From Candidatus Limnocylindria bacterium (GTDB lineage: Bacteria > Methylomirabilota > Methylomirabilia > Rokubacteriales > CSP1-6): a stretch of 64,000 bases of DNA. The DNA lies in NCBI GenBank assembly GCA_035524955.1, contig DATLFG010000105.1, positions 7,093 to 71,092 on the forward strand, in the 5' to 3' direction. The position numbers and the translations under genes are program-made. Position 1 is the stretch's first letter. Every line of letters starts with the position of its first letter. A model generated the notes under the pieces. It searched no databases and had not been told where the DNA came from. It saw only the letters and a list, made by a program, of their open reading frames with translations. Below, piece by piece: positions 31,519-59,426 of this stretch.

Positions 31519-32421
31519 TCAGAGTGGCCTGACCGGCGCGCAGAGATCGGCGCGGAACGCGCCCGGGCGCCCGCCGACCTGCGGGTTGCCCCGGTACAGC
31601 TCCAGGCACGGTCGGTCGTCCGGCTCGTACCCGCTGTCGGGCAGCCAGGACCGATAGAGGGCATCCCAGGCCAGAGGGATCCGGTGCGCGGTACCGGAGT
31701 ACCTGTTCACCGCATAGCGGCCGCCCGGTAGATCGATGAGGTTGACGAGGCGGTCGCTCTGGAAGTCCGGCGGGACCACCACGCAGGCATCGTACCGGCA
31801 CTTCTCGGGCGGCGTGACCCACGCGTCGTCGTGCCCGATGCCGATCCGCAGTCGATCCGCCTCGTCCAGGCCGCGCGTGCTTATCCATCGCCTGAACCGG
31901 ATCCAGAGGGCCGGGATGCCGCCGGCGCCATAGGGGCCGACATGGCGCATGTACGCGACGCGGTGGGGCGGCAGCTCCTGGATGCTCACGCGCATGCGGC
32001 GAGCCTGCACCCTCGCGCCGGGCCGCGCTTTGCCCGGCTTGCGAAGCGGTTTGCCGCGCTTGCTCCAGCGTCGGGCGCCGCCGGCCCGCCACTCGGTCGC
32101 GCTCGTGCCGAAGTGGGCCCGGAAGGCGCGGGCGAAGCCGGCGGCCGACGCGAAGCCGTGATCGAGCGCGACCGCGAGCACGCTCTGATCTGGGTGGTGG
32201 ATCAGCGAGACCGCGGCGCGCTCGAGCCTCTGTCGCTGGACGAAGGCCGACAGTGTCTCACCGGTGACCGTCCGGAAGACCCGGTGGAAGTGGAACGGCG
32301 AGAACAGGGCAATCCGCGCCAGGCGCTCGAGCGGGAGATCGTCCGCCAGGTGATCCCGGACGTGGTCGATCACCCGGTTGACCCGCTTCTCGTACTCGAG
32401 GCGGTTCGGGCCCGGCCGCAT
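31519..32421 (-). CDS. AraC-family transcriptional regulator with C-terminal GyrI-like effector-binding domain
   Basis: An N-terminal AraC HTH (FHFHRVFRTVTGETLSAFVQRQRLERA...ALDHGFASAAGFARAFRAHFG) is joined to a C-terminal GyrI-like/Rob-type domain (HRVAYMRHVGPYGAG...). Confidence 0.8.
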   Translation of the reverse strand: MRPGPNRLEYEKRVNRVIDHVRDHLADDLPLERLARIALFSPFHFHRVFRTVTGETLSAFVQRQRLERAAVSLIHHPDQSVLAVALDHGFASAAGFARAFRAHFGTSATEWRAGGARRWSKRGKPLRKPGKARPGARVQARRMRVSIQELPPHRVAYMRHVGPYGAGGIPALWIRFRRWISTRGLDEADRLRIGIGHDDAWVTPPEKCRYDACVVVPPDFQSDRLVNLIDLPGGRYAVNRYSGTAHRIPLAWDALYRSWLPDSGYEPDDRPCLELYRGNPQVGGRPGAFRADLCAPVRPL

Positions 32422-32441: not shown

Positions 32442-32846
32442 CTACAGCCGGCCGTGCTGCTCGACCTGCTTCCAGTAGGTGTCCTTGTTCAGGATCTTGT
32501 CGCCGCGGAACTCGTAGAGATCGCAGCCCTGGTAGTTGAGGAGCTCGCCGTCCGCGCTCGTGCCGGTGACCATCCACACGGAGACCGCCCGATTGCCGGT
32601 CACGAAGTGATCGATGTGGTCCCAGCGCATGCCACTGATGACCTTGAAGCGGTCGGCCAGGACCTTCCCGATCGCCGCCCGCCCGTGAACGCGGCGCCCG
32701 CACGGCTCGGGGCCGCGGGCCATCAGGAACGTCGCGTCCTCCGCGAAGAAGGTCAGGATGCGGTCCACGTCACGGCTGTTGAAGGCGGCGTTGATCGCCA
32801 TGAGCAGGTCGATGCTGGGGCCGGTGGCGGTCGTGGTGGTCATCAT
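32442..32846 (-). CDS. SnoaL-like / NTF2-like family protein
   Basis: A 134-aa protein with the typical SnoaL_2 layout (IDLLMAINAAFNSRDVDRILTFFAEDATF...). Confidence 0.65.
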   Translation of the reverse strand: MMTTTTATGPSIDLLMAINAAFNSRDVDRILTFFAEDATFLMARGPEPCGRRVHGRAAIGKVLADRFKVISGMRWDHIDHFVTGNRAVSVWMVTGTSADGELLNYQGCDLYEFRGDKILNKDTYWKQVEQHGRL

Positions 32847-32897: not shown

Positions 32898-33209
32898 TCA
32901 CTCGCGAGGCTTCTCGGTCTCGGGAAGGCACTGATACTCCACGACCTTCGCCTTGGGATCCCACCGCCCCCCCTTCCATCCGGCGCGCAGGGTCCGGTTG
33001 ATGGCCGTGGTCATCGCCCCCTTGCACCAGCGCTCGCCCTCGTAGACCTGCGTCCGTCGCCACTCGCCGTGATCCCGGCCGTTGACATCGACCGGGCGCT
33101 CCCACAGCGTCCACCGATGCTCGGCGGGACCGGCGGCGACGGCAAGCACGCCGCAGAGCAGCGCGAGGAGGGCGCGGGCCCGCGTCCGCGAGGCGATCAG
33201 TCGCGGTAC
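32898..33209 (-). CDS. hypothetical secreted protein
   Basis: A signal-like stretch (RALLALLCGVLAVAAGPA) is followed by a Trp/Arg-rich domain with two Cys. The start is uncertain. Confidence 0.3.
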   Translation of the reverse strand, partial: VPRLIASRTRARALLALLCGVLAVAAGPAEHRWTLWERPVDVNGRDHGEWRRTQVYEGERWCKGAMTTAINRTLRAGWKGGRWDPKAKVVEYQCLPETEKPRE

Positions 33210-33388
33210 TCGCAGTGGCCGCTGATCAGCGAATATGACCGTGACTCCTTCCACCAGCCGCCCGTACTGGCGCACCGGGCCGCCAGCTCTTCCTGCGTGT
33301 AGGCCGGCGGGACCGGGACGCCGGAGCAGGCCGTCAGCGCCAGCGTGCCGAGCAGCACGCCCAGCGCGGTTATCCGCAGGGTGCGCAT
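33197..33388 (-). CDS. small lipoprotein (about 64 aa)
   Basis: MRTLRITALGVLLGTLALTAC|SG contains a lipobox LTAC. Two further Cys residues are in the mature part. Confidence 0.4.
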   Translation of the reverse strand: MRTLRITALGVLLGTLALTACSGVPVPPAYTQEELAARCASTGGWWKESRSYSLISGHCEYRD

Positions 33389-33497
33389 ATGCGCCAGCAT
33401 ACTACCCCCGGCGTCGGGCCCTCTGCCCGGTTGTCCGGGGGCCGGTCCGGACGCTATCCTCCATGGCGCAGACTCCATTCCCCTCGAGGAGACAGCC

Positions 33498-34400
33498 ATG
33501 CGGATCGGGTTCGTGGGCCTGGGCACGATGGGTGGACCGATGGCGAGGCGGCTGGCCGCGCAGGGTCATCAGGTGACCGGCTACGACGTGGACGCGGCCC
33601 GCGCCGCGCGCGCTCGCGAGAGCGGGGTCATGCTGGCCACTTCTCCGGCCGGCGCCGCGGAGGGCGCCGACGCCGTGCTCTCGAGCCTGCCGGACCCGGC
33701 CGCGCTCCGGCGCGCCTACCTGGGCGCCGATGGCGTGCTCGGCACCGTGAGGTCGGGCGCCACCCTCATCGACCTGAGCACGGTGGACCCCGACACCTGG
33801 CGCGAGGTCGCGGTGGCCGCGCGGGCCAGGGGCGCGGACTGCCTCGACGCGCCGGTGAGCGGCGGCCCGGCCGAGGCGGGTACCGGGAAGCTGGTCTTCC
33901 TGGTCGGGGGCGACGCCGCGGTGCTGGAGCGGTGCCGCGCGCTGCTGATGACCCTGGGGACCGAGATCCACCACGTCGGCCCGCTGGGATCGGGCCAGAT
34001 CGTCAAGATCGTCAATAACGTGATGTCCATCGGCAACGTGGCGGTGGCCGCGGAGGCCATGGTGCTGGGCGTGAAGGCGGGGATGGACCCGCAGCGCCTC
34101 TTCGACATCCTGTCCACGAGCGGCGGGCGCTCGCACCATTTTCTCAAGCGATTTCCGAATGTTCTGGCCGGAGACTTCACGCCCTACTTCGGCATCGGGC
34201 TCTCGCGCAAGGATGTCTCCCTCGCGCTGGGCATGGCCGCCAAGCTCGAGGTGCCGATGCTCGTGGCGTCCACGGTGCGCCAGGTCTACGAGGCCGCGCA
34301 CGCCCAGGGTTTCGGCCAGCTCGACATGGCCGCGGTCACCCGGCTCTACGAGCACTGGACCGGCGTCACGGTACGCGCGAAGCCGGAGCCCGCCGACTAG
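33498..34400 (+). CDS. NAD(P)-dependent oxidoreductase, 3-hydroxyisobutyrate/6-phosphogluconate dehydrogenase-like
   Basis: MRIGFVGLGTMGGPMARRLA Rossmann motif with an NAD_binding_2 plus NAD_binding_11 layout. A GAGGAGA RBS is present. Confidence 0.85.
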   Translation: MRIGFVGLGTMGGPMARRLAAQGHQVTGYDVDAARAARARESGVMLATSPAGAAEGADAVLSSLPDPAALRRAYLGADGVLGTVRSGATLIDLSTVDPDTWREVAVAARARGADCLDAPVSGGPAEAGTGKLVFLVGGDAAVLERCRALLMTLGTEIHHVGPLGSGQIVKIVNNVMSIGNVAVAAEAMVLGVKAGMDPQRLFDILSTSGGRSHHFLKRFPNVLAGDFTPYFGIGLSRKDVSLALGMAAKLEVPMLVASTVRQVYEAAHAQGFGQLDMAAVTRLYEHWTGVTVRAKPEPAD

Positions 34401-35092
34401 ACCACGACGTACAGATCTCCGCTGTCCACCTTGAGCGGGTAGCTGCGGAGGCCCTCCAGCGCGTCGCCCCGCGGCGCGCCGGTCTTGATGTCGAACTGCC
34501 ACATGTGCTCGAGACAGGTCAGGACCGAGCCGTCGTGCATCCCCTGCTCCAGCGGGATGGTCTCGTGCGGGCACAGCGCCTGGAGGGCCACGTAGGCGTC
34601 GCCGGTGTGGACGATGAGGACGTTGACGCCTTCCACCGAGAACTCCTTCATCCCGTTGGCGGGCACCTCGGCGGCCGGGCCGACCCGCTTCCACGCGGGC
34701 GCCGGGTCGCCCGGGGGCCGGGCCTGGGCGCGCCCGGCGGCGGCCCGCTTGATGTCGGCCAGCTCGGCCTCGCTCACCTTGTTCGCGCCCGGCTTGCCGG
34801 GGTTATAGCGCAGCCGCTCCACCGGCCGGCCGGCCACGATGTGGGAGGTGACGATCTCGTCGAGGTCCGACTCCTGGACGCCCGCGTACCAGACGTCGTC
34901 CGGGTAGAAGACGATCATCGGACCCCGCCCGCACTGCGAGAAGCAGCCCGCCTTGTTGACGCGCATGTCGCCCGACCGGCCCATCTGCTTCGCCCGCTCC
35001 CGGAGGATCTTCACGAACTTCTCGGTGTCGCCCTGCTCCGGGCAGGTCTCGCCGCTCGTGCACACGAAGACGTGCTGCTCGTACTGGCCCAT
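34397..35092 (-). CDS. fusion protein: thioredoxin-like [2Fe-2S] ferredoxin (N) + Rieske [2Fe-2S] domain (C)
   Basis: The N-terminal 4-Cys thioredoxin-like ferredoxin pattern is VFVCTSGETC...AGCFSQCGRGP. The C-terminal Rieske motif is CPHE-x16-CLEH (CxH...CxxH). Confidence 0.8.
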   Translation of the reverse strand: MGQYEQHVFVCTSGETCPEQGDTEKFVKILRERAKQMGRSGDMRVNKAGCFSQCGRGPMIVFYPDDVWYAGVQESDLDEIVTSHIVAGRPVERLRYNPGKPGANKVSEAELADIKRAAAGRAQARPPGDPAPAWKRVGPAAEVPANGMKEFSVEGVNVLIVHTGDAYVALQALCPHETIPLEQGMHDGSVLTCLEHMWQFDIKTGAPRGDALEGLRSYPLKVDSGDLYVVV

Positions 35093-35123
35093 CGTCGCTC
35101 CTTTCGGTCCCAGCTGATCGATC

Positions 35124-36161
35124 CTAGCTGAACTTGTCGTACCGGATGTCGGCGGGCGATAGTCTCGCCTCGCGCAGCAGCAAACGCAAGCTCGCGTCCA
35201 CCATCGGGGGCGGACCCGCCACGTAGGCGCGGACGTCGGCGAAGCGGCCCTTCATGCGCTCGCCCGCCACCGCGTGGACGAGACCGCGCGCGAAGGCGAA
35301 CCCCGGATAGGCCGCGGGCAGCGACGCGGGCACGTCCTCGTCGGACAGCGCGATCGTGACCGCCAGGCGCGCCGGGCCGCGCGCCTGGAGCGCCTGCAGC
35401 TCGTCGAGGAAGAAGCCGTCGCGCTCCGAGCGCACCCCGAAGTAGATGTGGCCGTGCCAGCCGGCGAAGTGGCCGGCCTCGCCGGCGCGCTGGAGGATCG
35501 ACATCATGCCCGCGATCCCGCTGCCGCCCGCGATGCAGAGCACGTGCTTCGGGAGTCCGGGCCGGAAGGTCGCGTGCCCGAGGGGGCCGAAGAGGCCGAG
35601 GCGCGTGCCCTCGACCCCGACGCCGAAGAGCCACTCGCTCACCGCCCCGCCCGGCTTCTTCTTCACGACGAACGACAGGCGCCGGGCCGCCGGCTCGAAG
35701 TTCACCATGGAGTAGGCGCGGGCCCCCGTGATGCCCGGCACCGTAAGCAGGGCGAACTGACCCGCGTCGAAATCGAGCGGCCGGTCGAGGTCCACGTCGA
35801 ATGCGGCCACGTCGTGGGTCAGGCGGCGCCAGCCGCGCACGACGCCGCCCAGCGCGCCGGGGAGCAGGGCGCCGGGCTCGCCCGCCTTGAGCACGCCGAC
35901 CTCGAGCGCGCACTCCTCGCGCGCCACGCACTGGCACATCAGCAGCTCGGCCGGGTCCTTGAGGTAGCGGCCTCCGGGGGCGTCGGGCCACTCGCTCTCC
36001 ACCCGACCGCTCACCAGCCTGGCCTTGCACGTGCCGCAGGTCCCGGTGCCGCATTCGTACGGGAGCTCGACGCCGCTGCGGAGCCCGGCATGGAGGATCT
36101 TCTCGCCGGGCTCGCACTCGAACTCGTGCGCCCCGCTCCGGGCGGTGACGGAGATCTTCAC
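35124..36161 (-). CDS. oxygenase reductase component: N-terminal plant-type [2Fe-2S] ferredoxin + FAD/NAD(P)-binding FNR-like domains
   Basis: The ferredoxin motif is YECGTGTCGTCKARL...C. The FAD motif is RAYSMV, and the NAD motif is LCIAGGSGIAGMMSIL. The arrangement is BenC/MmoC-like. Confidence 0.85.
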   Translation of the reverse strand: MKISVTARSGAHEFECEPGEKILHAGLRSGVELPYECGTGTCGTCKARLVSGRVESEWPDAPGGRYLKDPAELLMCQCVAREECALEVGVLKAGEPGALLPGALGGVVRGWRRLTHDVAAFDVDLDRPLDFDAGQFALLTVPGITGARAYSMVNFEPAARRLSFVVKKKPGGAVSEWLFGVGVEGTRLGLFGPLGHATFRPGLPKHVLCIAGGSGIAGMMSILQRAGEAGHFAGWHGHIYFGVRSERDGFFLDELQALQARGPARLAVTIALSDEDVPASLPAAYPGFAFARGLVHAVAGERMKGRFADVRAYVAGPPPMVDASLRLLLREARLSPADIRYDKFS

Positions 36162-36168
36162 GGCCGGC

Positions 36169-36993
36169 TCACCCCGGCAGCCTCCAGTCGAGCCACGCGC
36201 AGAGGGCGCGGCCCATGATCAGCTCCTTGTCGCGCGCGGTGAGCCACGGGAGCTCCTCGGTGAACAGCGCCACGCACTGCCGCCAGGTGCACGGCATGCG
36301 CGTGATGTCCGTCCCCCAGAACAGCCGCTCCGGCCCGAAGGCTTCGTGGAGCCGGCGGAGGTGGGGGTGGATATTGCGGTAAGGATAGGGCTCGCTCGAG
36401 TAGCTGGGCGCTCCCGTGGCCTTGACCGCCACGTTCGGATGCTTCGCGAGCGCCAGGAGCTCCGACAGGTTGGCCCAGGCCGCCTCGTCCTTCGTGCGGT
36501 GCGGCCGGCCGAGATGGTCGACGATCAGCTTGAGCCCCGGGTGGCGCTCGGCCACCTGCCCGACGAGCGGCAGGAAGTCCGCCGCGAGCAGCGCCAGCGG
36601 CACTCCGGCCCGCTCGGCGGCCGGCCACAGCCAGTCCAGGGTGCCGTCCGTCGGCCAGCTCTTCTGGTGCGGCTGCAGGAAGACGAACCGTAACCCGAGC
36701 ATGCCCGGCTGGCGCGTCCAGCCGTCGATGAGACCGCGGCTCTCCGGTCGGTCGAGCGGGAACTTCCCGAGGATCGCCAGCCGGTCGGGGTGCTGGCGGG
36801 CGGCCTCGAGGGCGAGCCGATCCGAGCCCGGGTCCCAGCCCGGCGGGTGGATCACCGCCGCCTGGACGCCCGCCGCGTCCATCTCGGCGAGCAGCTCGTC
36901 CTTGGAGAACACCGACGTGGGGCGGTGGGGCGGCAGGGGCGTGCCGCTGCCCCAGATATGCACCTGGGCGTCGACGATCAGCACGGCAGGCAT
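36169..36993 (-). CDS. amidohydrolase-2 (ACMSD/LigW-like metal-dependent hydrolase/decarboxylase) family protein
   Basis: DAQVHIW at the N-terminus is the metal-binding HxH equivalent in a TIM-barrel amidohydrolase_2 layout, with DHLGRP and WGTD motifs. It ends 8 nt into the reductase start. Confidence 0.75.
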   Translation of the reverse strand: MPAVLIVDAQVHIWGSGTPLPPHRPTSVFSKDELLAEMDAAGVQAAVIHPPGWDPGSDRLALEAARQHPDRLAILGKFPLDRPESRGLIDGWTRQPGMLGLRFVFLQPHQKSWPTDGTLDWLWPAAERAGVPLALLAADFLPLVGQVAERHPGLKLIVDHLGRPHRTKDEAAWANLSELLALAKHPNVAVKATGAPSYSSEPYPYRNIHPHLRRLHEAFGPERLFWGTDITRMPCTWRQCVALFTEELPWLTARDKELIMGRALCAWLDWRLPG

Positions 36994-37040
36994 GGTCTCG
37001 CGGCCCGTGGAGCAGGTCAAGGTCGAAGCCGCTCGCTTGA

Positions 37041-38192
<1,152 letters not shown>

Positions 38193-38287
38193 TCCGGGTC
38201 ACGGCGGTCGCCCGGGGAGCTCGGCGAGCGGCCAGGGCTTCGGGCCAACGCACAGCACCACGCGGCGCCTGCGAGCTCCATCGGGTC

Positions 38288-39130
38288 CTAGACCGGCTTG
38301 TCGCCCGCGATCTGGACCCGACGCATGACCCGCCGGAACCGCCCCGCATCGTGAACGGCCAGGTGCTTGACGCAGCGATTGTCCCAGAACGCGACCGATC
38401 CGTTGGCCCACCGGAAGCGGCAGGTGAACTCGGGCCGGTGGCCGTGCTCGAGCAGGAAGCCGAGCAGGGGCGCGCTCTCGGCTTCCGTCATGTCCTCGAA
38501 GCGGATGGTGTAGGAGTGGTTGACGAAGAGCAGCTTGCGCCCGGTCTCGGGATGCGTGCGCACGACGGGGTGGGTGCTCACCGTCTCCTCCCAGCCCTCC
38601 TCGCGCACCTTCGTGGCCCGGTAGGCGTTCAACCCCGCCTGGGGCCCGGCCACCTTGCGATCGCTGTGGACGGCCCGCAGGCCCTCCAGCAGGCGCTTCA
38701 TGCCGTCGGACAGCGCCTCGTAGGCGAGGTACTGGCTGGCGAAGAGCGTGTCGCCGCCGTAGGGCGGCACCTCGATGGCGTAGAGGATGGCGCCCATCGG
38801 GGGCTCCGCCATCATGGTGGTGTCGGTGTGCCACTCCTCCCCCACGATGCGCAGGTCTCCGGGCTCGCGGCGGATCTCGATGATCTCCGGATCGGGGACG
38901 ACGGTCGCGTAGTTGGGGTGCACGAAGATGTCGCCGAAGCGCCGCGCGAACGCCTTGTGCCCGGCGGCATCGAACCGCTGGTCGCGGAAGAAGACGACGC
39001 AGTGATCCAGGAGCGCCCGTCGGATAGCGGCCACGCTCGCCTCGTCGAGATCGGCGCCCAGGTCCACGCCGTGGATCTCGGCCCCCAGGGAGCCGGTGAT
39101 GGGATGGACCTCGATCGCTCTCGCCGCCAT
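38288..39130 (-). CDS. TauD/TfdA-family Fe(II)/2-oxoglutarate-dependent dioxygenase
   Basis: The HxD...H facial triad context is WHTDTTMMAEPP...H. The fold is TauD-like, and a GGGGAGAGAGG RBS precedes the internal ATG. Confidence 0.85.
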   Translation of the reverse strand: MAARAIEVHPITGSLGAEIHGVDLGADLDEASVAAIRRALLDHCVVFFRDQRFDAAGHKAFARRFGDIFVHPNYATVVPDPEIIEIRREPGDLRIVGEEWHTDTTMMAEPPMGAILYAIEVPPYGGDTLFASQYLAYEALSDGMKRLLEGLRAVHSDRKVAGPQAGLNAYRATKVREEGWEETVSTHPVVRTHPETGRKLLFVNHSYTIRFEDMTEAESAPLLGFLLEHGHRPEFTCRFRWANGSVAFWDNRCVKHLAVHDAGRFRRVMRRVQIAGDKPV

Positions 39131-39147
39131 GTCCTCTCTCCCCGGGG

Positions 39148-39795
39148 TCAGTAGAGATTCTTCCGGTAGCCGTCCTGCAGGCGCTGGTCGAGCTCCTCCA
39201 CCGTCATGGTGTTGATCCGGGCGTGATCGCGGAACATCTGGGCGGGCGAGGCCAGCCCCTCCCGATCGGGCCAGCGCGCGGGGTCCCAGAGGCCGGAGCG
39301 CTTCACGCACTTCGCGCAATGGAGGAACGATTCCTCAACGGCCACCGCGATGGCGAGCTGCGGCGTCTTGCCCTGGGCGGCCAGGCGCGCCAGCCACTCG
39401 GGGTCGCGCACGATCCGGGCGCGGCCGTTGACCCGCAGCGTCTCCTCGCTGCCCGGTACCAGGAAGATGAGCCCGATGCCCGGGTTCTCGAGCAGGTTGC
39501 GCATCCCGTCGAAGCGCTTGTTGCCCGGGCGGTCCGGGATGAGCAGCGTCCGCTCGTCCACCACCAGGACGAAGCCGGGGGCGTCGCCCTTGGGGCTCAC
39601 GTCGCAGCGGCCCGAGCGATCCGCGGTGGCCACCAGCACGAAGGGTGACCGCGCGATGAAGGCCCTGCAGTGCTCGTCCAGCCGGCCGATGTCCTTGCGC
39701 AGCGCGATCTCGGAGGGCTCGCCCATCAGCGCGCGCAGCTCGTCGAGGGTTCCCACCACGTCCGTGAACTCCGTCGCCCCATCCGCTCCGCTCAT
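39148..39795 (-). CDS. PPOX-type FMN-dependent flavoprotein (MSMEG_1061-like family)
   Basis: Shows the MSMEG_1061 family layout at 215 aa (FIARSPFVLVATADRSGRCDVSPKGD...LHCAKCVKRSGLWDP). Confidence 0.7.
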   Translation of the reverse strand: MSGADGATEFTDVVGTLDELRALMGEPSEIALRKDIGRLDEHCRAFIARSPFVLVATADRSGRCDVSPKGDAPGFVLVVDERTLLIPDRPGNKRFDGMRNLLENPGIGLIFLVPGSEETLRVNGRARIVRDPEWLARLAAQGKTPQLAIAVAVEESFLHCAKCVKRSGLWDPARWPDREGLASPAQMFRDHARINTMTVEELDQRLQDGYRKNLY

Positions 39796-43973: not shown

Positions 43974-44954
43974 ATGAATCGTCGAGCGTTCCTTAGGTCC
44001 CTTGGCTCCAGTCTCCTCGCCGCGCCGCTCGCCGCCGAGGCGCAGCAGTCCAGCAAGATCGCGAAGATCGGAATCCTGGCGAACTCGCCCTCCCCCCTCT
44101 TGGAGGCGCTCAAGGAGGAACTGCGCGGGTTCGGCTGGGTCGAGGGACGCACGGCCGCGTTCGAGGTTCGCTACGCCAGGGGGGACCTGGATCGCCTTCC
44201 CGGCTTTGCGGACGAGCTCGTCAAACTCGACGTCGATGTCATCATCGCCCCCGCACCGCCTGCGGTGCGCGCCGCCAAGCAGGCCACCGCCACGATCCCC
44301 ATCGTGATGACCGCCGTCGCGGACCCCGTCCGCGATGGGTTCGTGGCCAGCCTGGCGCGCCCCGCCGGCAACGTGACTGGTGTCGCGAGCGTCGCGGCGG
44401 CGACGTTGCTTCCGAAGATTCTCGAACTCGGCAAGGAGGCGATCCCACGGATGACCCGTGTGGGCCTCCTGTTCAACGCCGCGAACCCCCTCAACTATGC
44501 CGCGACGTTCTCCGATGAGCTGCGGGAGGCGGCTAGGGCGCTGAAGGTCGAGTTGCACGACCTGGGGATTCGGAGCGCCGACGACGTCCGTGCGGCGATG
44601 GGGGCAGCCGTGGCCGCGAGGGTCGACGCCGTCCTCGTCGTCGGTGACCCGCTCACGTTCATGCATCGCGGGCTGATCCAGGAGCTGGCCGCTCAGCGTG
44701 GGCTGCCAACGCTCCAGACGACACGAGAGTACCTCGCCGGACGCGGCCTGCTGTCGTACGGGTCGAGCCTCGAGCTGCTCGTCCGGGCCGTCGCGCCCTA
44801 TGTCGACAAGATCCTGAGGGGGGCCAGGCCCGCCGATCTCCCCGTCGTCCAGCCCTCAAAGTACGAGCTCGTCATCAACCTCAAGACCGCCAAGGCGCTC
44901 GGCCTGACAATCCCCCAATCGCTCCTGCTGCGGGCGGATCAGGTGATCGAGTGA
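43974..44954 (+). CDS. orphan ABC-type substrate-binding protein (PF04392 'ABC_sub_bind' family), Tat-signal
   Basis: An RRAFLRSLG Tat signal is followed by KIGILANSP...VDVIIAPAPPAV...IPIVMTAV, the typical layout of this family. No adjacent permease or ATPase gene exists. Confidence 0.7.
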   Translation: MNRRAFLRSLGSSLLAAPLAAEAQQSSKIAKIGILANSPSPLLEALKEELRGFGWVEGRTAAFEVRYARGDLDRLPGFADELVKLDVDVIIAPAPPAVRAAKQATATIPIVMTAVADPVRDGFVASLARPAGNVTGVASVAAATLLPKILELGKEAIPRMTRVGLLFNAANPLNYAATFSDELREAARALKVELHDLGIRSADDVRAAMGAAVAARVDAVLVVGDPLTFMHRGLIQELAAQRGLPTLQTTREYLAGRGLLSYGSSLELLVRAVAPYVDKILRGARPADLPVVQPSKYELVINLKTAKALGLTIPQSLLLRADQVIE

Positions 44955-45013
44955 GCCGCCCGCGAGGGGTGTCAGGCTGGAGTATGAGGCGGCCCTCCTT
45001 GACACGGTGTGAA

Positions 45014-45028
45014 TAGAATACTATTCTA
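45014..45028. promoter_or_regulatory. perfect 7-1-7 palindrome TAGAATAcTATTCTA (candidate operator)
   Basis: A perfect inverted repeat sits in an AT-rich patch (gaaTAGAATACTATTCTAatg), immediately upstream of the XRE-family gene. Confidence 0.5.
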
Positions 45029-45043
45029 ATGCCAGTCTCAGCC

Positions 45044-45232
45044 ATGGGACGACGGATCAAGCGCTTAAGGGAAGCGAAAGGCATGAGCCAGCGCACCCTG
45101 GCGGCCAAGGGTAAGGTTACGCAAGGCCTCATTCACCAGCTCGAGACCGGCGCGATTCAGGACGTCCGGTCCCATGTGGTGGTGAAGCTGGCGAAGGCCC
45201 TCGGCGTGCCGGTGACGGACTTACTCACATGA
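45044..45232 (+). CDS. XRE-family helix-turn-helix transcriptional regulator (about 62-67 aa)
   Basis: IKRLREAKGMSQRTLAAKGKVTQGLIHQLETGAIQDVRSHVVVKLAKALGVPVTDL is the classic Cro/C1-type HTH. An alternative ATG lies at 45029. Its stop overlaps the next ATG (ATGA). Confidence 0.8.
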   Translation: MGRRIKRLREAKGMSQRTLAAKGKVTQGLIHQLETGAIQDVRSHVVVKLAKALGVPVTDLLT

Positions 45233-46146
45233 GGGGCCCCGCTCGCTGGCGCCCGGGAGAGGTAGCCCGGTGGCTGCGGGTGGGCACACGGGCTCGGCTG
45301 CAGGCCGGATGGCACCGACTCCGGCCGGACTACCTGGTACAAGAAGAGCAGTTTCAGCGGGCGTTCGGCCGGCCGATCAATTGGCGCCACCCCACCACAT
45401 TCAACGAGAAGATCCATTGGATCCGACGCTATGAGCGTTCCCCGCTCCTTACCCGGCTGTCGGACAAGGTGGCGGTCCGGGACTACGTCGCGGAACGGTG
45501 CGGGCCTGGCGTGCTGCCTGAGGCCATCGGGGTGTGGGAGCGGGTCGAGGAGATTCCGTGGGCCACGCTGCCGCTGCCCTGTGTCCTCAAGGTTAACTGG
45601 GGTTCGGGAATGAACTGGTTCTGTCGGGACCGGGGTAGCCTCGACATCTGTCAGGCGACCACTCAGCTCACGGCGTGGATGAGCCGTAACCACTACTGGA
45701 ACCACCGGGAGTGGGCCTACAAGAACATCCAGCCCCGGATTCTTGGCGAGAGGCTACTGGTCACATCTACCGGCCACATTCCCGCGGACTACAAGATGTT
45801 CTGCTTCGACGGGGTGCCGTGCATTGTCCAAATCGACAACAATCGCTTCACGCACCACACCAAAGATCTGTATGCCCTACCCTGGCGGAGACTCCACGTG
45901 AGCTACCATTACCCGTCGATCGGTCAGGACCAGCCGCCTCCGCCGCAACTCAAGTCCTTACTAGAGATGGCGGCCGTTCTCTCCCGCGGCATACCCTTCG
46001 TCCGGGTGGACGGCTATGACCTCAGCGATCGAATCGTTTTCGGAGAGTGCACGTTCTACCCAAACGCGGGGATCATCCCCTTTGAGCCGGAAGCCTTTGA
46101 TATCGAACTAGGCTCGTGGCTGACGGTGCGGCGAATTGGCACTTAG
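45229..46146 (+). CDS. TupA-like ATP-grasp amidoligase family protein
   Basis: A 305-aa protein with FNEKIHWIRRY...KDYV....LKVNWGSGMNWF...DYKMFCFDG...VRVDGYD, matching the ATPgrasp_TupA (PF14305) pattern. Local GC is lower (about 62%). Confidence 0.65.
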   Translation: MRGPARWRPGEVARWLRVGTRARLQAGWHRLRPDYLVQEEQFQRAFGRPINWRHPTTFNEKIHWIRRYERSPLLTRLSDKVAVRDYVAERCGPGVLPEAIGVWERVEEIPWATLPLPCVLKVNWGSGMNWFCRDRGSLDICQATTQLTAWMSRNHYWNHREWAYKNIQPRILGERLLVTSTGHIPADYKMFCFDGVPCIVQIDNNRFTHHTKDLYALPWRRLHVSYHYPSIGQDQPPPPQLKSLLEMAAVLSRGIPFVRVDGYDLSDRIVFGECTFYPNAGIIPFEPEAFDIELGSWLTVRRIGT

Positions 46147-46233
46147 GACCAGCTCTCGCGAGCAGGCCGCGCGGATCAGCAGGTTCAACAGCGGCCCCAA
46201 GACCCTCGGCGTGCCGGTGACGGAGCTGCTGGG

Positions 46234-46455
46234 ATGACTGATCTGGACCGCGAGCAGCTCAAGCGGGATTGCTCCGACGCGCTCGAGGCCCGTAACCGTG
46301 AGCAGCGCACCGACCGGATCGCGGACCTGGCCGATGCGCTCCGCGCCCTCGGGCCCCCATACCGCTTCCATGGCGAGTCGCCCCGGGACGGGCAGGACAA
46401 CGCGATCACCTGGCATCTGATCCATGTGCTCGAGAAGTTGGAGAAGGAGACGTGA
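46234..46455 (+). CDS. hypothetical protein (73 aa)
   Basis: The ATG overlaps the TGA of an upstream XRE-like C-terminal remnant (ATGA). No recognisable domain; the sequence is charged and helical (DREQLKRDCSDALEARNREQRTDRIADLADALRAL). Confidence 0.35.
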   Translation: MTDLDREQLKRDCSDALEARNREQRTDRIADLADALRALGPPYRFHGESPRDGQDNAITWHLIHVLEKLEKET

Positions 46456-46512
46456 CCCAGAAGTAAGACGTTCTGGAGCTAAACCCGCCGCACAAGGTAT
46501 TGGAGTACGAAA

Positions 46513-46734
46513 ATGAAAAAGAGCAAGAAAGCATCATCCCGGGTCACCGCGCCGAATCAGGAAACCTCCGCCGCGGCCGCAGCCTCCAAGACGGCCAGTC
46601 GGCGTAAGGCGGCCCGGTCGAGTGCAGTGGAGAACGTCGCCAAGCGGCAGTTCCAGAAGAGCCGGGCGACCGCGATCCAAGCCCATGCCCAGGCGCGCGG
46701 GCAACGACGCCAGGCGAAGCGGGACGCTCGGTAA
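46513..46734 (+). CDS. hypothetical small highly basic protein (73 aa, Lys/Arg/Ala-rich)
   Basis: An AT-richer leader (agtacgaaaATGaaaaagagcaagaaagc) is followed by KKSKKASSR...RRKAARSS...RGQRRQAKRDAR, suggesting a nucleic-acid-binding protein. Confidence 0.3.
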   Translation: MKKSKKASSRVTAPNQETSAAAAASKTASRRKAARSSAVENVAKRQFQKSRATAIQAHAQARGQRRQAKRDAR

Positions 46735-46903
46735 CGTAAAGAGGCCCCCGGCGTGCCGGTGGCAAACCGTAAAGAAGGCAAGGGGCTTCGTCCAACTAGT
46801 TCTACTGCTCGCTGCCTGGCCGCAGAACGGAGGGCGTGATGGTTGCTTTCCGGCAGCTCGAGGACCTCGACGGCGGGCGGGCGTGACGGCCCGCGTGGAG
46901 GAG

Positions 46904-47155
46904 ATGATCTTCACGGCGCTCTGCGATCGGTTTCGGTCGCCCACGCAAGTCTGGCAGTCGATGTCGCTGGTCGAACTCGAGGAGGCGACCGGCCTCGCCA
47001 AGGAGCCCCTCGAGGAAGCCCTTCGCGCGCTGCGCGGGGCCGATGGTCGCGACGACTCGCGCATTGCGTATGGTGCAGGACGGGTCGTTCTCGGTGCAGT
47101 CTGGCGCGTCCAGTGCCGAGATCTCCCGAACGATCCGGGACCCGACCGACCGTGA
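46904..47155 (+). CDS. hypothetical small protein (about 83 aa)
   Basis: An in-frame M lies inside a longer artifact ORF. The sequence is acidic and helical (MIFTALCDRFRSPTQVWQSMSLVELEEATGLAKEPLEEALRAL). Confidence 0.2.
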   Translation: MIFTALCDRFRSPTQVWQSMSLVELEEATGLAKEPLEEALRALRGADGRDDSRIAYGAGRVVLGAVWRVQCRDLPNDPGPDRP

Positions 47156-47556
47156 GACCTCTCGCCTGGCTCTGCGTGGTCGCGGGGCTCCTCGCGGCTG
47201 CCTGCTCGAGCACCCTCCGCGAGGTCCGCGCCCGTGAGCCCGAGTTCCGCTTCGCGGGAATCGCGGCATCGATGCAGCTTGAGGTGGCCCGATGTATTCG
47301 GGACGTGCTGGACCGGAGCGTCGGCGAGGGCATCCTCCAGGAACTCGAGCTCGCCCGAGACGGCGTGCACGTGGTCGGCCGGCCCGACGAGTCACTCTCG
47401 GCGGCCGTGTTCTACGACGTTGCCGTCCGAGAGGAGGCTGTCGTCGCCATGCTGGCTCCGCGATCGGTGATTCCGCGCGACCTGCTCCGGGGTGCGATCG
47501 CGGCGTGCGTCCCGGCAGCGCCAGGTGCCGCGGGCCAACCACCGGCCACAAGGTGA
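47152..47556 (+). CDS. hypothetical lipoprotein
   Basis: The GTG start overlaps the previous TGA. RPLAWLCVVAGLLAAAC|SS is a lipobox. Confidence 0.3.
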   Translation: MRPLAWLCVVAGLLAAACSSTLREVRAREPEFRFAGIAASMQLEVARCIRDVLDRSVGEGILQELELARDGVHVVGRPDESLSAAVFYDVAVREEAVVAMLAPRSVIPRDLLRGAIAACVPAAPGAAGQPPATR

Positions 47557-47613
47557 GGAAAGTTGCCTGGGAAGGCCATCCGCGAAGAAGTCGGGTCTAT
47601 CAAGGAGGACGCC

Positions 47614-49238
47614 ATGATCGCCGCGATCTACGCTCGCAAGAGCACCGACCAGAACGTCGCGGACGAGGAGAAGTCCGTCACGCGCCAGATCGAGCGCGCC
47701 ACCGCCTACGCCCATGCGAAGGGGTGGAGCGTGGCGGCTGGGCATGTTCTACGCCGACGATGGGATCTCTGGCGCCGAGTTCGTCAAGCGCCCGGGATTT
47801 CTGGGGCTGGCTGAACGCGCTCGAGCCCCGGCCCCCGTTTCAAGCGCTGATCATGTCCGAGGAGTCGCGCCTCGGCCGTGAGTCCATCGAGACCGGCTGG
47901 ACGCTGAAGAAAATCACCGACGCAGGCGTGCGGGTCTTCTACTACCTCGAGGACCGCGAGCGCACGCTTGGCTCCTCCATGGACAAGGTGATGATGCACC
48001 TGTCGAGCTTCGCCGCCGAGATGGAGCGGGAGAAAGCGGTGCAGCGGACGCGGGACGCGATGCGCCGGAAGGCCGAGCGGGGCCATGTGGCCGGCGGGCG
48101 CGTCTACGGCTACGACAACCAGCGGGTCGGCGACCACATCGAGCGCGGGATCCACCCCGCGCAGGCCGACGTGATCCAGCGCATCTTCCGCGAGATCGCC
48201 GCCGGGCGTGGCTTCACCCGCGTGGCGAAGGGGCTGACGGCCGAAGGGGTCCCCTCCCCGCATCCGGGGCGCGGCTGGGCCGCCACCGCCGTGCGCGAGA
48301 TGGTATTCCGGGAGCTCTACCGGGGCCGGCAGGTGTACGGCAAAGCGCGGTGGGAGCGGCGGGGCGGGACCAAGCGCAAGATCCAGGTGCCGGAGGCCGA
48401 GTGGTCCATCGTCGAGACGCCGGCGCTGCAGATCGTCGACGCCACGCTCTGGCAGGCCGCGCATCGGCGCCTCGATCGGACACGGGCAATCTACCTACAC
48501 CGCACGAACGGCAAGCTCTAGGGCCGGCCGAAGGCGGGCCTCGAGGCGAAGTACCTGCTCTCCGGGTTCGTGGTGTGCGGAATCTGCGGCGGGGCGATGC
48601 ACGCGACGAAGCGGACCAGTCTCCGGGGCGGGCCCCAGCTCTACTACGTCTGCCGGACGCATCGCGTACGGGGCGATCTGCTCTGCCGCAACAGCCTGTC
48701 GGCCCCGATGAGCGAGCTCGATACCGACGTGGCCACCGCCTTCGAGCGGGACGTGCTCACTGCGGACGTGATCGAGGCGGTCGTGCAGCGCGCGGTGGAG
48801 ATCGAGCGCGCCCACCCGGATGACGCGGCGCCGCAACGCGAGACGCTGCGCAGCCGGCTCCGCCAGCTCGAGGGCGAACACGGGCGCTTCATGGAGGCGG
48901 TTCGCCAGTGGGGCCCGATGGGGTTGCTCGGCGCCGAGCTGCGGACGCTCGAGGTGCGCTGGGCCGAGCTCCTGGCCCAGCTCGAGCACCTGGACGGGCT
49001 GGAGAAGGCGGCGGGGGCGTGGGCCGCCCAGGCCCTGGCCGGCGACTTCGCGGCGCTGCTCGGCGAGTGGCAGGCCCTCCTGCGGGGCGACCCCGTACAG
49101 GCACGCCAGATCCTGCGCAAGCTCATCATGGGCCGGCTGCGGATGGTGCCGGAGATCCGGCCCGATGGGCGCTTCTACCGGTGGACCGGCCAGGCCTCGT
49201 ACGGACAGCTGCTGCCGGTCTCATCGGTGTACAAGGCT
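47614..49238 (+). pseudogene. large serine recombinase (resolvase/integrase), decayed: two frameshifts plus in-frame amber stop
   Basis: An RBS CAAGGAGG precedes MIAAIYARKSTDQ (resolvase catalytic domain; the Ser nucleophile lies in ARKST). The motif YADDGISGAEFVKRPGF is in a second frame. The recombinase domain (WLNALEPRPPFQALIMSEESRLGRE...) is in a third frame. A TAG at 48519-48521 interrupts ...RTNGKL*GRPKAGLEAKYLLSGFVVCGICG (zinc-ribbon motif), and a coiled-coil C-terminus follows. The last frame runs into the tRNA. Confidence 0.75.
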
Positions 49239-49315
49239 TGGTGCCCCCGGGGTGACTCGAACACCCGGCACGCAGTTTAGGAAACTGCTGCTCTATCCAC
49301 CTGAGCTACGGGGGC
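49239..49315 (-). tRNA. tRNA-Arg (anticodon CCT)
   Basis: A 77-nt cloverleaf: acceptor stem GCCCCCG/CGGGGGC, anticodon stem GCAGT/ACTGC with loop TTCCTAA, T-loop TTCGAGT, and an encoded CCA. Confidence 0.9.
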
Positions 49316-56601: not shown

Positions 56602-56715
56602 CGCTCAGTCCTCGCTGGCTACTCGATGGTGAAGGGCTCGAGAGTGTTATAGCACCAGTACCAAGGGGGCTCAATCGAAATCACTAGGGGTTCTGCCTAG
56701 TTAGCCACCGCCGGC

Positions 56716-58056
56716 TCAGGCGCGTCGACGCGCCCCCCGGGACCGGCGGCCGGTGGACATGCGAAAGAGCAGGCGCAGGGGCGAGCCCGCGAAACCGTGG
56801 GCGTGCCGCAGCGAGTTGATGAGGTAGCGCTCGTAGGAGAAGTGGATGCTCTCCGGCAGGTTCACGCGGATGGCGAAGGTGGGCGGCGACACCGCGACCT
56901 GCTGCGCCGACTGCACGCGCAGCGGAATGCCGCGCGCCGACATCGGACGCCGCTCCACCGCGTGGCGCAGCGTGGCCAGCAGCTCACCCGGTTGCAGGCG
57001 CTTCTGTGCCTCCGCGGCCACCACGTCCACCTGGTCGAAGAGATCGCGCAGCCCGAGCCGCGTGACCGCGGAGGTGAAGCAGATCGGCGCGTGCTCGAGG
57101 AACGGCAGCCGCTCGTGGATCTGCCCGGTGACGTCGGCCCGCTGCACGAGACCGGTCGGCACGAGGTCCCACTTGTTCACCGCCACCACCACCGCCCGGC
57201 CCGCGTCGTTGGCGTAGCCCGCGATGTGCGCGTCCTGCGCGGTCACGCCCTCGGAGGCGTCCATGACCAGCACCGCCACCTGGCACCGCTCGAGGCTCTT
57301 GAGCGCCATCACCACCGCCAGCTTCTCGAGGGCCTCGGTCACCTTGCCCTTGCGGCGGATGCCCGCGGTGTCGATCAGCAGGTAGTCGCGATCGCGGAAC
57401 GTCACCGGCGTGTCCACCGCGTCGCGCGTGGTGCCGGGCAGGTCGTGCACCAGCACGCGCTCGTGGCCGAGCACCGCGTTGACCAGGGACGACTTGCCGA
57501 CGTTCGGGCGCCCGATGACCGCGACCCGGATCCCCTCCGGCGCCCCCTCGGGGGCGACGGCGGGCGCGCGGTCCCGGCAGGCCTCGAGCAGCTCGGCCAC
57601 GCCGCGGCCGTGCTCGGCGGAGATGGTGAGCACCGGCGCGAAGCCCAGGCGGTAGGCGTCGCCCAGCGGCGCGTCCTGGCCCGCGGCGTCCACCTTGTTG
57701 ACCGCGAGCAGCACCGGCCGTCCGGACTTTCTCAGGATCCCCGCGATCTCCTCGTCGAGGCCGGTCACGCCGGCGCGGCCGTCCACCACGAAGACGAGCA
57801 GGTCGGCGTCGTCCACCGCCTGCAGCACCTGCCGGCGCACGCCCTGCACCAGGTCGGACGCGCTGCTGGGGTCGAAGCCGCCGGTGTCCACGACGGTGGC
57901 CTGCCAGCGCTCGAACACCGCGGTGCCGTAGAGGCGGTCGCGCGTGACGCCGGGGACGTCCCGCACGAGCGAGCGGCGGCGGCCGATGAGCCGGTTGAAG
58001 AGCGTGGACTTGCCCACGTTCGGGCGGCCCACGACGGCGATGACCGGGCGGAGCAC
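56716..58056 (-). CDS. der: ribosome-biogenesis GTPase Der (EngA), tandem GTPase domains
   Basis: Two G-domains are present ([12 protein letters not shown] and [12 protein letters not shown]) plus a KH-like C-terminus. Confidence 0.92.
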
Positions 58057-58080
58057 GCGCGCCTCCGGGTTCCCCGGCGC

Positions 58081-59424: not shown

Positions 59425-59426
59425 CG

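Follow-up and report, generated by a model that had tools for sequence, protein, structure and literature searches.

The window, by which we mean the whole 64-kb stretch of DNA that was analysed, carries three co-oriented genes on its minus strand. They encode, in this order, an amidohydrolase, a reductase and a two-cluster ferredoxin in which a thioredoxin-like [2Fe-2S] ferredoxin (TLF) is fused to a Rieske domain (TLF::Rieske). The features were located as follows:

31519-32421, minus strand, AraC-GyrI regulator gene (syntenic context in the closest subclade)
32442-32846, minus strand, SnoaL-like protein gene (syntenic context in the closest subclade)
33498..34400, plus strand, beta-hydroxyacid (HIBADH-like) dehydrogenase gene, convergent with the fusion gene
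34397..35092, minus strand, TLF::Rieske fusion gene (231 aa, NCBI HUP37998.1)
34400..34693, minus strand, C-terminal Rieske-type ferredoxin domain of the fusion, aa 134-231 (ligands C174, H176, C193, H196)
34694..34783, minus strand, variable Ala/Pro-rich linker, aa 104-133 (predicted helix aa 108-123)
34784..35092, minus strand, N-terminal TLF domain, aa 1-103 (ligands C11, C17, C50, C54)
35124..36161, minus strand, reductase gene (345 aa; plant-type [2Fe-2S], FAD and NAD(P)H domains assigned with Pfam)
36169..36993, minus strand, Amidohydro_2 enzyme gene (274 aa; lactonase-like COG3618 branch), the first gene of the operon here
36994..37199, no strand, divergent intergenic region from the amidohydrolase start to the trpS start, presumably containing the operon promoter
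38288-39118, minus strand, TauD-family dioxygenase gene (syntenic context)
39148-39795, minus strand, MSMEG_1061-family PPOX flavoprotein gene (syntenic context)

The reductase gene begins with GTG 7 nt past the amidohydrolase stop, and the fusion ATG, preceded by a GGAG-type ribosome-binding site, lies 31 nt past the reductase stop; the tight linkage of the three genes on one strand was thus as described in the original prediction. The stop codons of the fusion and HIBADH-like genes overlap. A consensus promoter scan of 36994..37199 gave no match; the DNA there is about 70% GC. The AraC-GyrI regulator, SnoaL-like protein and beta-hydroxyacid-dehydrogenase-like genes named earlier as neighbours were each found again, and the aromatic-compound context attributed to the locus was retained. 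TauD-family and PPOX flavoprotein genes lie directly upstream of the amidohydrolase gene in the related loci L014 and L015.

The original prediction placed two different [2Fe-2S] sites in one chain, and both domains were matched. The C-terminal half matched Pfam Rieske (E=1e-13, 51.4 bits versus a cut-off of 20.3); its best solved relatives were T4moC (6e-13) and CarAc, BphA3 was also matched, and the domain is without the disulfide cysteines typical of high-potential Rieske proteins. Its motif TCLEHMWQF is similar to the one in T4moC. On the N-terminal half Pfam 2Fe-2S_thioredx scored 17.6 bits, below its cut-off of 24.8; NCBIfam fdxn_Clost (NF041612) matched at 1.3e-17, and Aquifex aeolicus Fd4 (PDB 1F37) at 7.7e-16 over the full length of Fd4. 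C11, C17, C50 and C54 of the fusion align with the Fd4 ligands C9, C22, C55 and C59.

An AlphaFold2 model of the fusion had a mean pLDDT of 91.7 and a pTM of 0.57, with the linker pLDDT falling to 58 near aa 121-130. The modelled N-terminal domain, with the cysteine pattern whose fold had been in question, superposed on the TLF structures 1F37 and 1M2A at a target-normalised TM of about 0.8, and the modelled Rieske domain on solved Rieske ferredoxins at 0.8-0.9. All eight cluster ligands were invariant in 130 homologues, except that C50 and C54 each deviate in a single sequence. In the TLF domain, which is under strong purifying selection, 59 of 103 columns were at least 95% conserved; conserved columns numbered 34 of 98 in the less strongly conserved Rieske domain and 4 of 30 in the linker, whose length differs among homologues.

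The reductase was, as predicted, of the BenC/MmoC type (Pfam Fer2, FAD_binding_6 and NAD_binding_1; profile matches BenC 1.6e-42 and MmoC 6e-37), and its best solved relatives were CarAd (7C3A, 5.7e-44), T4moF (4.8e-32) and BenC (7e-28). Gene neighbourhoods were surveyed at 125 related loci, of which 85 were well flanked and 96 had enough upstream sequence. Only the reductase proved to be a constant partner of the fusion, its gene lying directly upstream of the fusion gene in 95 of the 96.

At 50% identity the fusion sequences fall into one cluster, found only in Rokubacteria/Methylomirabilota, and no solved structure or publication on it was found. A second copy, 99% identical, came from another sample (L088). 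The TLF domain shares about 70% identity with a free-standing TLF of the same phylum, whose gene is flanked by ispG and proS within a run of housekeeping genes; the Rieske domain is 52% identical to a standalone Rieske ferredoxin (P0130). An unfused pair occurs at L174, where the gene of a reductase 55% identical to that of the window is followed directly by that of a standalone Rieske ferredoxin sharing 52% identity with the C-terminal domain. The TLF domain probably arose as a copy of a housekeeping TLF that became joined to a conventional Rieske ferredoxin.

No ferredoxin-dependent oxygenase of any kind was found in the 64-kb window: a Rieske motif scan of its whole length returned only the fusion's own, and tblastn with the relatives' oxygenase gave no match. 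In several close relatives, however, a gene for an oxygenase large subunit borders the operon. It encodes a 450-aa Rieske + LigXa_C oxygenase and is located directly 3' of the fusion, between it and the HIBADH-like gene, at eight loci (L001, L014, L015, L018, L098, L101, L103 and L148), and such a gene lies 2.6 kb from the fusion in L021; in L100 only oxygenase residues 372-443, a C-terminal relic, are left between the same two genes. This oxygenase is of the phthalate/LigXa family and is isophthalate/phthalate-dioxygenase-like (PDB 9INA, 1.6e-101), 9INA being isophthalate dioxygenase (PMC12445078). Oxygenase-bearing loci are scattered among oxygenase-less ones on the fusion tree, and a TcuA-like gene is missing from the window along with the oxygenase. 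Because the oxygenase adjoins the fusion in relatives and has left a relic in L100, the missing alpha subunit is a lineage-specific deletion. The earlier description of a complete chain with no oxygenase alpha subunit therefore holds for the window, but not as a feature of design.

The oxygenase adjoining the fusion in the closest clade is convergent, being co-transcribed with the HIBADH-like and TcuA-like genes and not with the pair. In more distant relatives the neighbour of the pair is another LigXa-like oxygenase, a small diiron protein resembling ToMO, LigB or HpaB. L029 and L051 have the order oxygenase, reductase, fusion, and in L135 a fragment of an oxygenase occupies the corresponding place; two LigXa-like oxygenases and LigB lie around the pair in L027 and L028. 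At eleven loci the pair is adjoined by the gene of a 271-aa diiron protein, a remote relative of the ToMO alpha subunit. In L168-L170, oxygenases 74-80% identical to that of L001 stand alone, the 8 kb around them being free of reductase and ferredoxin genes.

On balance, the reductase and TLF::Rieske protein probably form a portable NAD(P)H-to-oxygenase chain of the carbazole-dioxygenase/toluene-monooxygenase ('class III') type, the cognate oxygenase gene of which was deleted here. We infer that NAD(P)H would reduce the FAD of the reductase, from which electrons would reach its plant-type [2Fe-2S] cluster and finally the fusion protein, whose Rieske domain would dock on the terminal oxygenase. 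In this lineage the cognate partner would have been the homotrimer-type Rieske oxygenase of the phthalate/LigXa family, whose gene directly adjoined the 3' end of the fusion gene. With that gene since deleted, the retained pair would therefore have to work with oxygenases, most likely of aromatic compounds, whose genes lie elsewhere in the genome; such sharing of electron donors has been documented in Sphingobium yanoikuyae B1 (PMC1847435). The TLF domain might act as a second one-electron store or relay, as a dimerisation module, or as both. For this reading, the reductase (CarAd, T4moF) and the Rieske domain (T4moC, CarAc) match partners from the same known systems, the reductase is the constant neighbour, an acceptor candidate (oxygenase or diiron protein) recurs beside the pair (22 of the 85 well-flanked loci), the L100 relic speaks for loss of the oxygenase, orphan oxygenases and an unfused counterpart of the pair exist, and selection on the pair persists without an oxygenase (dN/dS 0.2-0.3 for the window pair versus other oxygenase-less relatives; ligands invariant). 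Against it, the window is without a ferredoxin-dependent oxygenase, the oxygenase of the closest clade is not co-transcribed with the pair, and its nearest characterised relatives, the isophthalate and phthalate dioxygenases, are two-component, with a reductase alone and no ferredoxin (PMC12445078). Because about three quarters of the well-flanked loci are without an oxygenase, the oxygenase partner is deduced from a minority of them. The higher conservation of the TLF domain than of the Rieske domain is left unexplained by the chain model. What is unusual here is the fusion; the operon itself does not represent a novel type of pathway.

Two electron acceptors had been suggested in the original prediction, the amidohydrolase-fold enzyme of the same operon and a trans-encoded partner, and the evidence favours the latter. 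The enzyme matched Pfam Amidohydro_2 (E=2.9e-26). It had been called ACMSD/LigW-like; its nearest characterised relatives are instead COG3618 lactonases (2FFI, 4DLF/4DO7, fuconolactonase, 4-sulfomuconolactone hydrolase), ACMSD and LigW being absent from its sequence-search matches and lower-ranked by fold, and it looks like a lactonase. That the chain reduces this enzyme is hardly credible. Only the tight linkage here, with its 7-nt gap to the reductase gene, speaks for it, whereas of the 85 loci with good flanks only 13 have the gene beside the pair, all of them members of the closest subclade (13/26), and it is missing from the other 72; even in the close clade, L012, L016, L020, L104 and L107 are without it. 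Close homologues, 77-81% identical, occur with no redox genes around them, and the lactonase branch has no known redox cofactor. The amidohydrolase is probably a lactonase-like pathway enzyme that shares the operon by chance and accepts no electrons.

A diiron or other oxygenase is an unlikely main client; the pair would in that case act like T4moF/T4moC feeding a carboxylate-bridged diiron hydroxylase. In favour of this, T4moC is the best match of the Rieske domain by sequence and fold, the reductase has T4moF as its second-best match, and the diiron protein beside the pair in the ~65%-identity clade is Phenol_Hydrox/AurF-like, with two E...ExxH motifs and a match to ToMO alpha at 5.5e-5. That similarity is weak, however; the diiron gene is absent from the window and from the whole clade of at least 75% identity, and the only adjacent acceptor candidate in the close clade is the LigXa-like Rieske oxygenase. 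Less probable still is a mainly TLF-type carrier, in which the reductase and Rieske domain would charge the TLF cluster for a non-oxygenase Fe-S enzyme such as an IspG-like client of the standalone TLF. The stronger conservation of the TLF half and its closeness to the ispG-linked TLF fit this; however, in oxygenase systems Rieske ferredoxins have potentials near -150 to -170 mV, whereas those of TLFs are closer to -300 mV, so Rieske-to-TLF transfer would be uphill. Moreover, the fusion lies among catabolic genes (for oxygenases, LigB, HpaB and transporters) rather than housekeeping ones, and an unfused reductase and Rieske pair exists without a TLF. It is very improbable that the window pair is a functionless leftover, decaying since the adjacent oxygenase was deleted. 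The oxygenase and TcuA-like genes are indeed missing and no acceptor candidate lies within 64 kb, but the reading frames are intact with all eight ligands present, the dN/dS against other oxygenase-less relatives is low, oxygenase-less loci are widespread and in the majority, and the copy at L088 was recovered from a separate sample.

Among known systems, TLF modules inside multi-centre electron-transfer proteins are found in NuoE/HoxE/HydB of complex I and bifurcating hydrogenases (7Q4V_B, 1.3e-13); these, unlike the fusion, are subunits of large flavin and Fe-S complexes, and no such subunits are present here. Free-standing TLFs (Aquifex aeolicus Fd4, 1F37; the C. pasteurianum 2Fe Fd; A. vinelandii FeSI, PMC8561814) share the fold and all four Cys ligands of the TLF domain, to which Fd4 is 33% identical, but are homodimers of ~100-125 residues with poorly defined physiological partners, whereas the TLF of the fusion is tethered covalently to a Rieske ferredoxin. 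NdmD, the reductase of caffeine N-demethylase, is likewise an electron partner of a Rieske oxygenase with one [2Fe-2S] cluster beyond the usual. Its extra cluster is a Rieske domain on the reductase, reported not to be necessary for NdmA activity (bioRxiv 10.1101/2021.12.17.472166), whereas that of the fusion is a TLF on the ferredoxin and the more conserved half.

The oxygenase beside the fusion in relatives belongs to the family of the isophthalate and phthalate dioxygenases (IPDO 9INA, PDO 7FJL) and LigXa-type O-demethylases; IPDO and PDO each consist of two components, one of them a dedicated reductase (PMC12445078), whereas the neighbouring chain here has three redox proteins or domains. 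T4moF/T4moC of toluene 4-monooxygenase (4WQM, 1VM9, 4P1B) has the same reductase architecture and the best Rieske match, and the ToMO-alpha-like protein adjoins the pair in related loci; here, however, the four-component diiron hydroxylase, effector protein and other tmo genes are lacking, and the TLF domain is extra. In CarAd/CarAc of carbazole 1,9a-dioxygenase (class III; 7C3A, 1VCK, 2DE5) a Fer2-FAD-NAD reductase and a low-potential Rieske ferredoxin likewise serve as a pair, for a homotrimeric alpha-only oxygenase. Among solved structures CarAd matches the window reductase best, and CarAc is one of the best matches of the C-terminal domain; unlike the carbazole system, the window is without an oxygenase gene, and to the single-domain CarAc plan of ~107 aa the fusion adds an N-terminal TLF [2Fe-2S] domain and a 30-aa linker.

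The operon lies in DNA of about 70% GC and consists of three co-oriented minus-strand genes, with a fourth gene converging on the last of them:

36169-36993, minus strand: Amidohydro_2 gene
35124-36161, minus strand: reductase, 345 aa, with a GTG start 7 nt past the preceding stop
34397-35092, minus strand: fusion of a thioredoxin-like ferredoxin (TLF) and a Rieske ferredoxin, 231 aa (HUP37998.1), with an ATG 31 nt past the reductase stop and a GGAG-type ribosome-binding site
33498-34400, convergent to the fusion gene: HIBADH-like dehydrogenase, the stop codons of both genes overlapping

A promoter and terminator scan of 33000-39500, run on DNA of about 70% GC, returned no promoters and one terminator-like site, which is within chance expectation. 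The AraC-GyrI regulator and the SnoaL-like protein of the original prediction were confirmed near the operon, as were a TauD-family enzyme and a PPOX flavoprotein. A tryptophanyl-tRNA synthetase gene (37200-38192, plus strand) separates the operon from the TauD gene in the window and in the related loci L013, L098 and L100; L014 and L015 have the TauD gene directly against the amidohydrolase gene.

The GC content falls to 0.656-0.662 at 44000-49300, compared with about 0.70-0.74 elsewhere in the window. This stretch, which may be an acquired island, includes a gene for a TupA-like ATP-grasp protein (45115-46146) and a fragment with a recombinase zinc ribbon (48522-49280). Two large ORFs are located on the plus strand at 3871-8772 (1633 codons) and 56701-59568 (955 codons), the second of which had no Pfam match at E<=1e-5. 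The source genome is labelled Candidatus Limnocylindria (Chloroflexota) at NCBI (proteins HUP37998.1 and HUP37999.1). The bin is probably misassigned, because gene content and synteny around the locus agree with Rokubacteria/Methylomirabilota contigs at 78-93% protein identity.

The 231-aa protein had been predicted to carry a TLF and a Rieske centre in one chain, and both halves were borne out by profile HMMs, by alignment to Aquifex Fd4 (1F37) and by Foldseek. When domain HMMs were run on 34397-35092, the C-terminal half matched the Rieske domain PF00355 at E=1e-13 (51.4 bits; cut-off 20.3), with the ligand motif CPHE-x16-CLEH of the CxH...CxxH type. This half has the small soluble Rieske fold of BphF, CarAc and T4moC, which were its Foldseek matches (target-normalised TM 0.8-0.9, rmsd 1.1-1.9 A). 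No extra Cys pair flanking the ligand motifs was read from the sequence, the disulfide cysteines of high-potential Rieske proteins being absent. Rieske ferredoxins are single-domain proteins of about 100-120 aa, whereas the fusion carries a TLF domain (aa 1-103) and a linker (aa 104-133) before its Rieske domain (aa 134-231).

The N-terminal half matched the NCBIfam model fdxn_Clost (NF041612) at E=1.3e-17 and 1F37 at E=7.7e-16 across the full length, with C11, C17, C50 and C54 aligned to the Fd4 ligands C9, C22, C55 and C59. It is clearly a TLF despite its Pfam score; as the E-values are significant and the scores lie below the TLF cut-offs (PF01257, 17.6 vs 24.8 bits; NF041612, 64.3 vs 150), it is a homologue and not an equivalog of the named proteins. 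In the AlphaFold2 model (mean pLDDT 91.7) the N-terminal cysteine pattern took up a thioredoxin-like alpha/beta ferredoxin fold with pLDDT above 90, and Foldseek gave target-normalised TM values of 0.79-0.82 to 1F37, 1M2A and 1M2D. A helix was modelled at residues 108-123. The high pLDDT together with a pTM of only 0.57 describes two well-defined domains whose mutual position is not fixed, and no PDB entry spanning both was found by Foldseek. Binding of [2Fe-2S] and homodimerisation are predicted for the TLF domain as traits of its family. The eight ligands hardly vary across 130 homologues (TLF cysteines invariant in 129-130 of 130), and columns conserved to at least 95% make up 59 of 103 in the TLF domain, 34 of 98 in the Rieske domain and 4 of 30 in the linker.

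When 5.8 billion proteins were searched for homologues, the matches formed 684 clusters at 90% identity; the top 120 show 65-100% identity, and every one of them is complete or almost so. A single full-length cluster with this architecture (P0121, 9e-96) emerged when 1.84 billion representatives, clustered at 50% identity, were scanned exhaustively with HMMER. Other proteins matching in two stretches were rejected as TLF-Rieske fusions, being tandem Rieske-Rieske, triple Rieske or tandem TLF. The sole exception was P0173 (L171:184-1236, on a 1.5-kb contig), a 350-aa protein in which a Rieske domain precedes a TLF domain and the beginning of an FNR-like flavin domain; here the two cluster domains have come together independently and in another order. 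In the phylogenetic survey, a one-genome-per-species collection held 44 fusion loci (42 full-length), 39 of them in genomes labelled Rokubacteria or Methylomirabilota; the remaining five, metagenome bins that belong to a single assembly series, probably reflect faulty binning. The fusion is confined to an uncultured soil phylum. Both of its COG domains had already been named in JGI automatic annotation. Literature searches on the TLF-Rieske fusion, on TLFs in Rieske oxygenase systems and on Rokubacteria Rieske proteins found nothing relevant, and no solved structure or paper for the fusion was found by literature search or by Foldseek against the PDB.

Possible sources of the two halves are present in related genomes. 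Standalone TLFs of about 110-130 aa in Rokubacteria are about 70% identical to the N-domain of the fusion, including the PGxPGxNK tail. They are encoded directly after ispG (GcpE) and before proS in loci L052-L087 (for example L070:8862-10330 and L060:10001-10390), in the string frr-uppS-dxr-rseP-ispG-TLF-proS-rimP-nusA-infB, and may be the physiological IspG reductant in Rokubacteria. An unfused pair at L174:2166-3650 consists of a 345-aa reductase, 55% identical to that of the window, and, directly downstream, a standalone Rieske ferredoxin of 132 aa that shares 52% identity with the fusion C-domain; close by are genes for a membrane protein of the FA_desaturase family and for a protein with a rubredoxin domain. 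From these sequences, the fusion appears to have arisen when a TLF of the housekeeping type was joined to the N-terminal end of an ordinary Rieske ferredoxin linked to a reductase.

The reductase is composed of Fer2, FAD_binding_6 and NAD_binding_1 domains with the C-x4-C-x2-C...C motif, and its solved relatives, best first, are CarAd (5.7e-44), T4moF (4.8e-32) and BenC (7e-28). It had been described as BenC/MmoC-type. Judged by its domains the architecture of ferredoxin, FAD and NAD modules is indeed shared, but with scores below the equivalog cut-offs (BenC, 145.8 vs 430 bits; MmoC, 127.1 vs 500) it is an orthologue of neither.

An exact match of the window protein was not present in the contig index, and genomic context was therefore taken from homologues. 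A set of 125 non-duplicate loci was pooled from a genome scan, a metagenome scan and exact-protein look-ups; 96 loci had enough upstream sequence and 85 were well flanked. The reductase gene is directly upstream of the fusion gene in 95 of the 96, and no other neighbour is constant across the pooled loci. A divergent full-length paralogue of the fusion in a Rokubacteria genome (L053:10001-10666, 44% identical, with HpaB downstream) is an exception to the invariant pairing, since no reductase was detected beside it by tblastn.

The original prediction described a complete electron-transfer chain without an oxygenase large subunit. In several related loci, however, an oxygenase gene does lie beside the operon. 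In L001, where the fusion is 79-80% identical, a 450-aa Rieske + LigXa_C oxygenase gene is convergent to the fusion gene, overlaps its 3' end and lies between it and the HIBADH-like gene, with a TcuA-like flavoprotein gene next. The same arrangement is found in L014, L015, L018, L098, L101, L103 and L148, and in L021 the oxygenase is 2.6 kb off. In 60-72%-identity clades the pair of reductase and fusion genes occupies other catabolic settings. There L029 and L051 have the order oxygenase, reductase, fusion, and L135 has part of an oxygenase in the corresponding place. In L027 and L028 the pair is accompanied by two LigXa-like oxygenases, a LigB extradiol dioxygenase and an amidohydrolase of another type, and L116, L126 and L127 carry parts of this set. 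The best solved relative of the L001-type enzyme is 9INA (1.6e-101), the isophthalate dioxygenase of Comamonas testosteroni KF1 (PMC12445078).

Locus L100, with window-like flanking genes, retains the oxygenase C-terminus (residues 372-443) in the spacer at 10693-10934 between the fusion and HIBADH-like genes, a gene loss caught in progress. In the window and in its 99%-identical twin L088 the oxygenase is cleanly gone, and the TcuA-like gene is also gone from the window. Oxygenase-bearing loci are scattered among oxygenase-less ones in the fusion-protein tree, for which an ancestral oxygenase followed by repeated deletion is the simplest history. No Rieske motif besides that of the fusion was found in the 64-kb window, and none of the tblastn queries run against it (LigB, HpaB, the diiron protein, two other types of oxygenase and a second type of amidohydrolase) gave a match. 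Pfam searches of 20 further window genes identified a luciferase-like monooxygenase and housekeeping genes only, with no P450, diiron or Rieske enzyme among them. No close oxygenase homologue with the accession prefix HUP (the same NCBI genome) was present among the best 120 matches. The annotation is corrected accordingly: the operon is not an oxygenase-free redox pathway, and its appearance as one is explained by loss of the oxygenase gene.

The amidohydrolase had been proposed both as an ACMSD/LigW-like enzyme and as a possible recipient of electrons, and neither proposal was supported. Its only solved sequence relatives, even at E<=10, are 2FFI and 4DLF (COG3618 lactonases), and its NCBIfam matches are fuconolactonase and 4-sulfomuconolactone hydrolase; by these matches its closest characterised relatives are not in the ACMSD/LigW decarboxylase/hydratase branch of PF04909. 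Query-normalised TM ranked lactonases (0.62-0.69) over LigW/ACMSD (0.50-0.60), a separation that is weak because the model is mediocre (pLDDT 70.7). The gene adjoins the pair in the window, and it was found in only 13 of the 85 well-flanked loci, all inside the subclade of at least 75% identity (13 of 26), where it is missing even from L012, L016, L020, L104 and L107. Among the neighbours of homologues 77-81% identical to it are short-chain dehydrogenases, transporters and a LigB-like gene, but no redox partners. Given this patchy occurrence, the redox-free loci of the homologues and the lactonase relatives, the amidohydrolase is a pathway enzyme and not a candidate electron acceptor, and electron delivery to it is scarcely credible.

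A Rieske or diiron oxygenase candidate is close to the pair in 22 of the 85 well-flanked loci. In 11 loci the pair is accompanied by a single-subunit protein of diiron type (271 aa), which has distant similarity to the ToMO alpha subunit (5.5e-5), a Pfam Phenol_Hydrox match (2e-14) and two E...ExxH motifs; it may be a minimal hydroxylase that receives its electrons from a Rieske ferredoxin. In the clade of about 65% identity it directly adjoins the pair (L039:10679-11494, L034:8056-8874 and L033:10706-11533, all on the minus strand, and eight more). That the client is a diiron rather than a Rieske oxygenase is nevertheless unlikely, the L001-type neighbours being Rieske enzymes. HpaB neighbours the pair in 8 of the 85 well-flanked loci, as well as on several shorter contigs. 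It was set aside as a client because HpaB-type enzymes use free reduced flavin, not ferredoxin.

The best supported reading, which we consider fairly probable, is an electron path from NAD(P)H through the reductase and the fusion to a terminal oxygenase. Electrons would pass from NAD(P)H to FAD and the plant-type cluster of the reductase, then to the fusion, and from there to a terminal oxygenase which in the genome of the window would be encoded in trans; for the transfer from fusion to oxygenase it is the gene neighbourhoods that point to this partner. Orphan oxygenases 74-80% identical to the L001 enzyme have no reductase or ferredoxin gene within 8 kb, and one donor system common to several oxygenases is known from Sphingobium yanoikuyae B1 (PMC1847435). 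The loss of the adjoining oxygenase could also mean that the pair in the window is a decaying remnant, a reading made very improbable by dN/dS values of 0.2-0.3, which place the pair under purifying selection in oxygenase-less lineages. Within the path to an oxygenase, the TLF domain could plausibly serve to relay electrons in line, to store the second electron, to admit electrons by another route or to mediate dimerisation. When free, TLFs form homodimers, and their physiological partners are poorly defined (PMC8561814). A function of the fusion centred on the TLF domain would suit the strong conservation of that domain but is improbable.

It is conceivable, and is put forward tentatively, that the fusion represents an unrecognised class of two-cluster oxygenase carrier, probably dimeric through its TLF domain, and a shared hub for the orphan oxygenases of Rokubacteria. 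Such a carrier might deliver both electrons of a Rieske or diiron oxygenase turnover in a single docking, or might link oxygenases to a further source of cellular electrons that is specific to the TLF.

Biocatalytic use of Rieske oxygenases is limited by the need for precisely matched redox partners, and a natural ferredoxin that bears two different [2Fe-2S] centres represents a new type of electron-transfer partner. The fusion could reveal two-electron staging for O2 activation, and could also show one donor supplying many oxygenases in a soil phylum that is abundant and uncultured.

Among known systems, an extra cluster in a Rieske-oxygenase partner has been described in NdmD (bioRxiv 10.1101/2021.12.17.472166). 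That cluster is dispensable, whereas the extra domain of the fusion is its more conserved half. The proposed path is that of CarAd/CarAc/CarAa and T4moF/T4moC. It resembles the chain of a class III three-component Rieske oxygenase system in the Batie classification in having a reductase with FAD and a plant-type [2Fe-2S] cluster, here closest to CarAd (5.7e-44). It differs from the textbook class III system in that the ferredoxin has two domains and two clusters and the terminal oxygenase alpha subunit is not encoded with the electron-transfer genes in the window.
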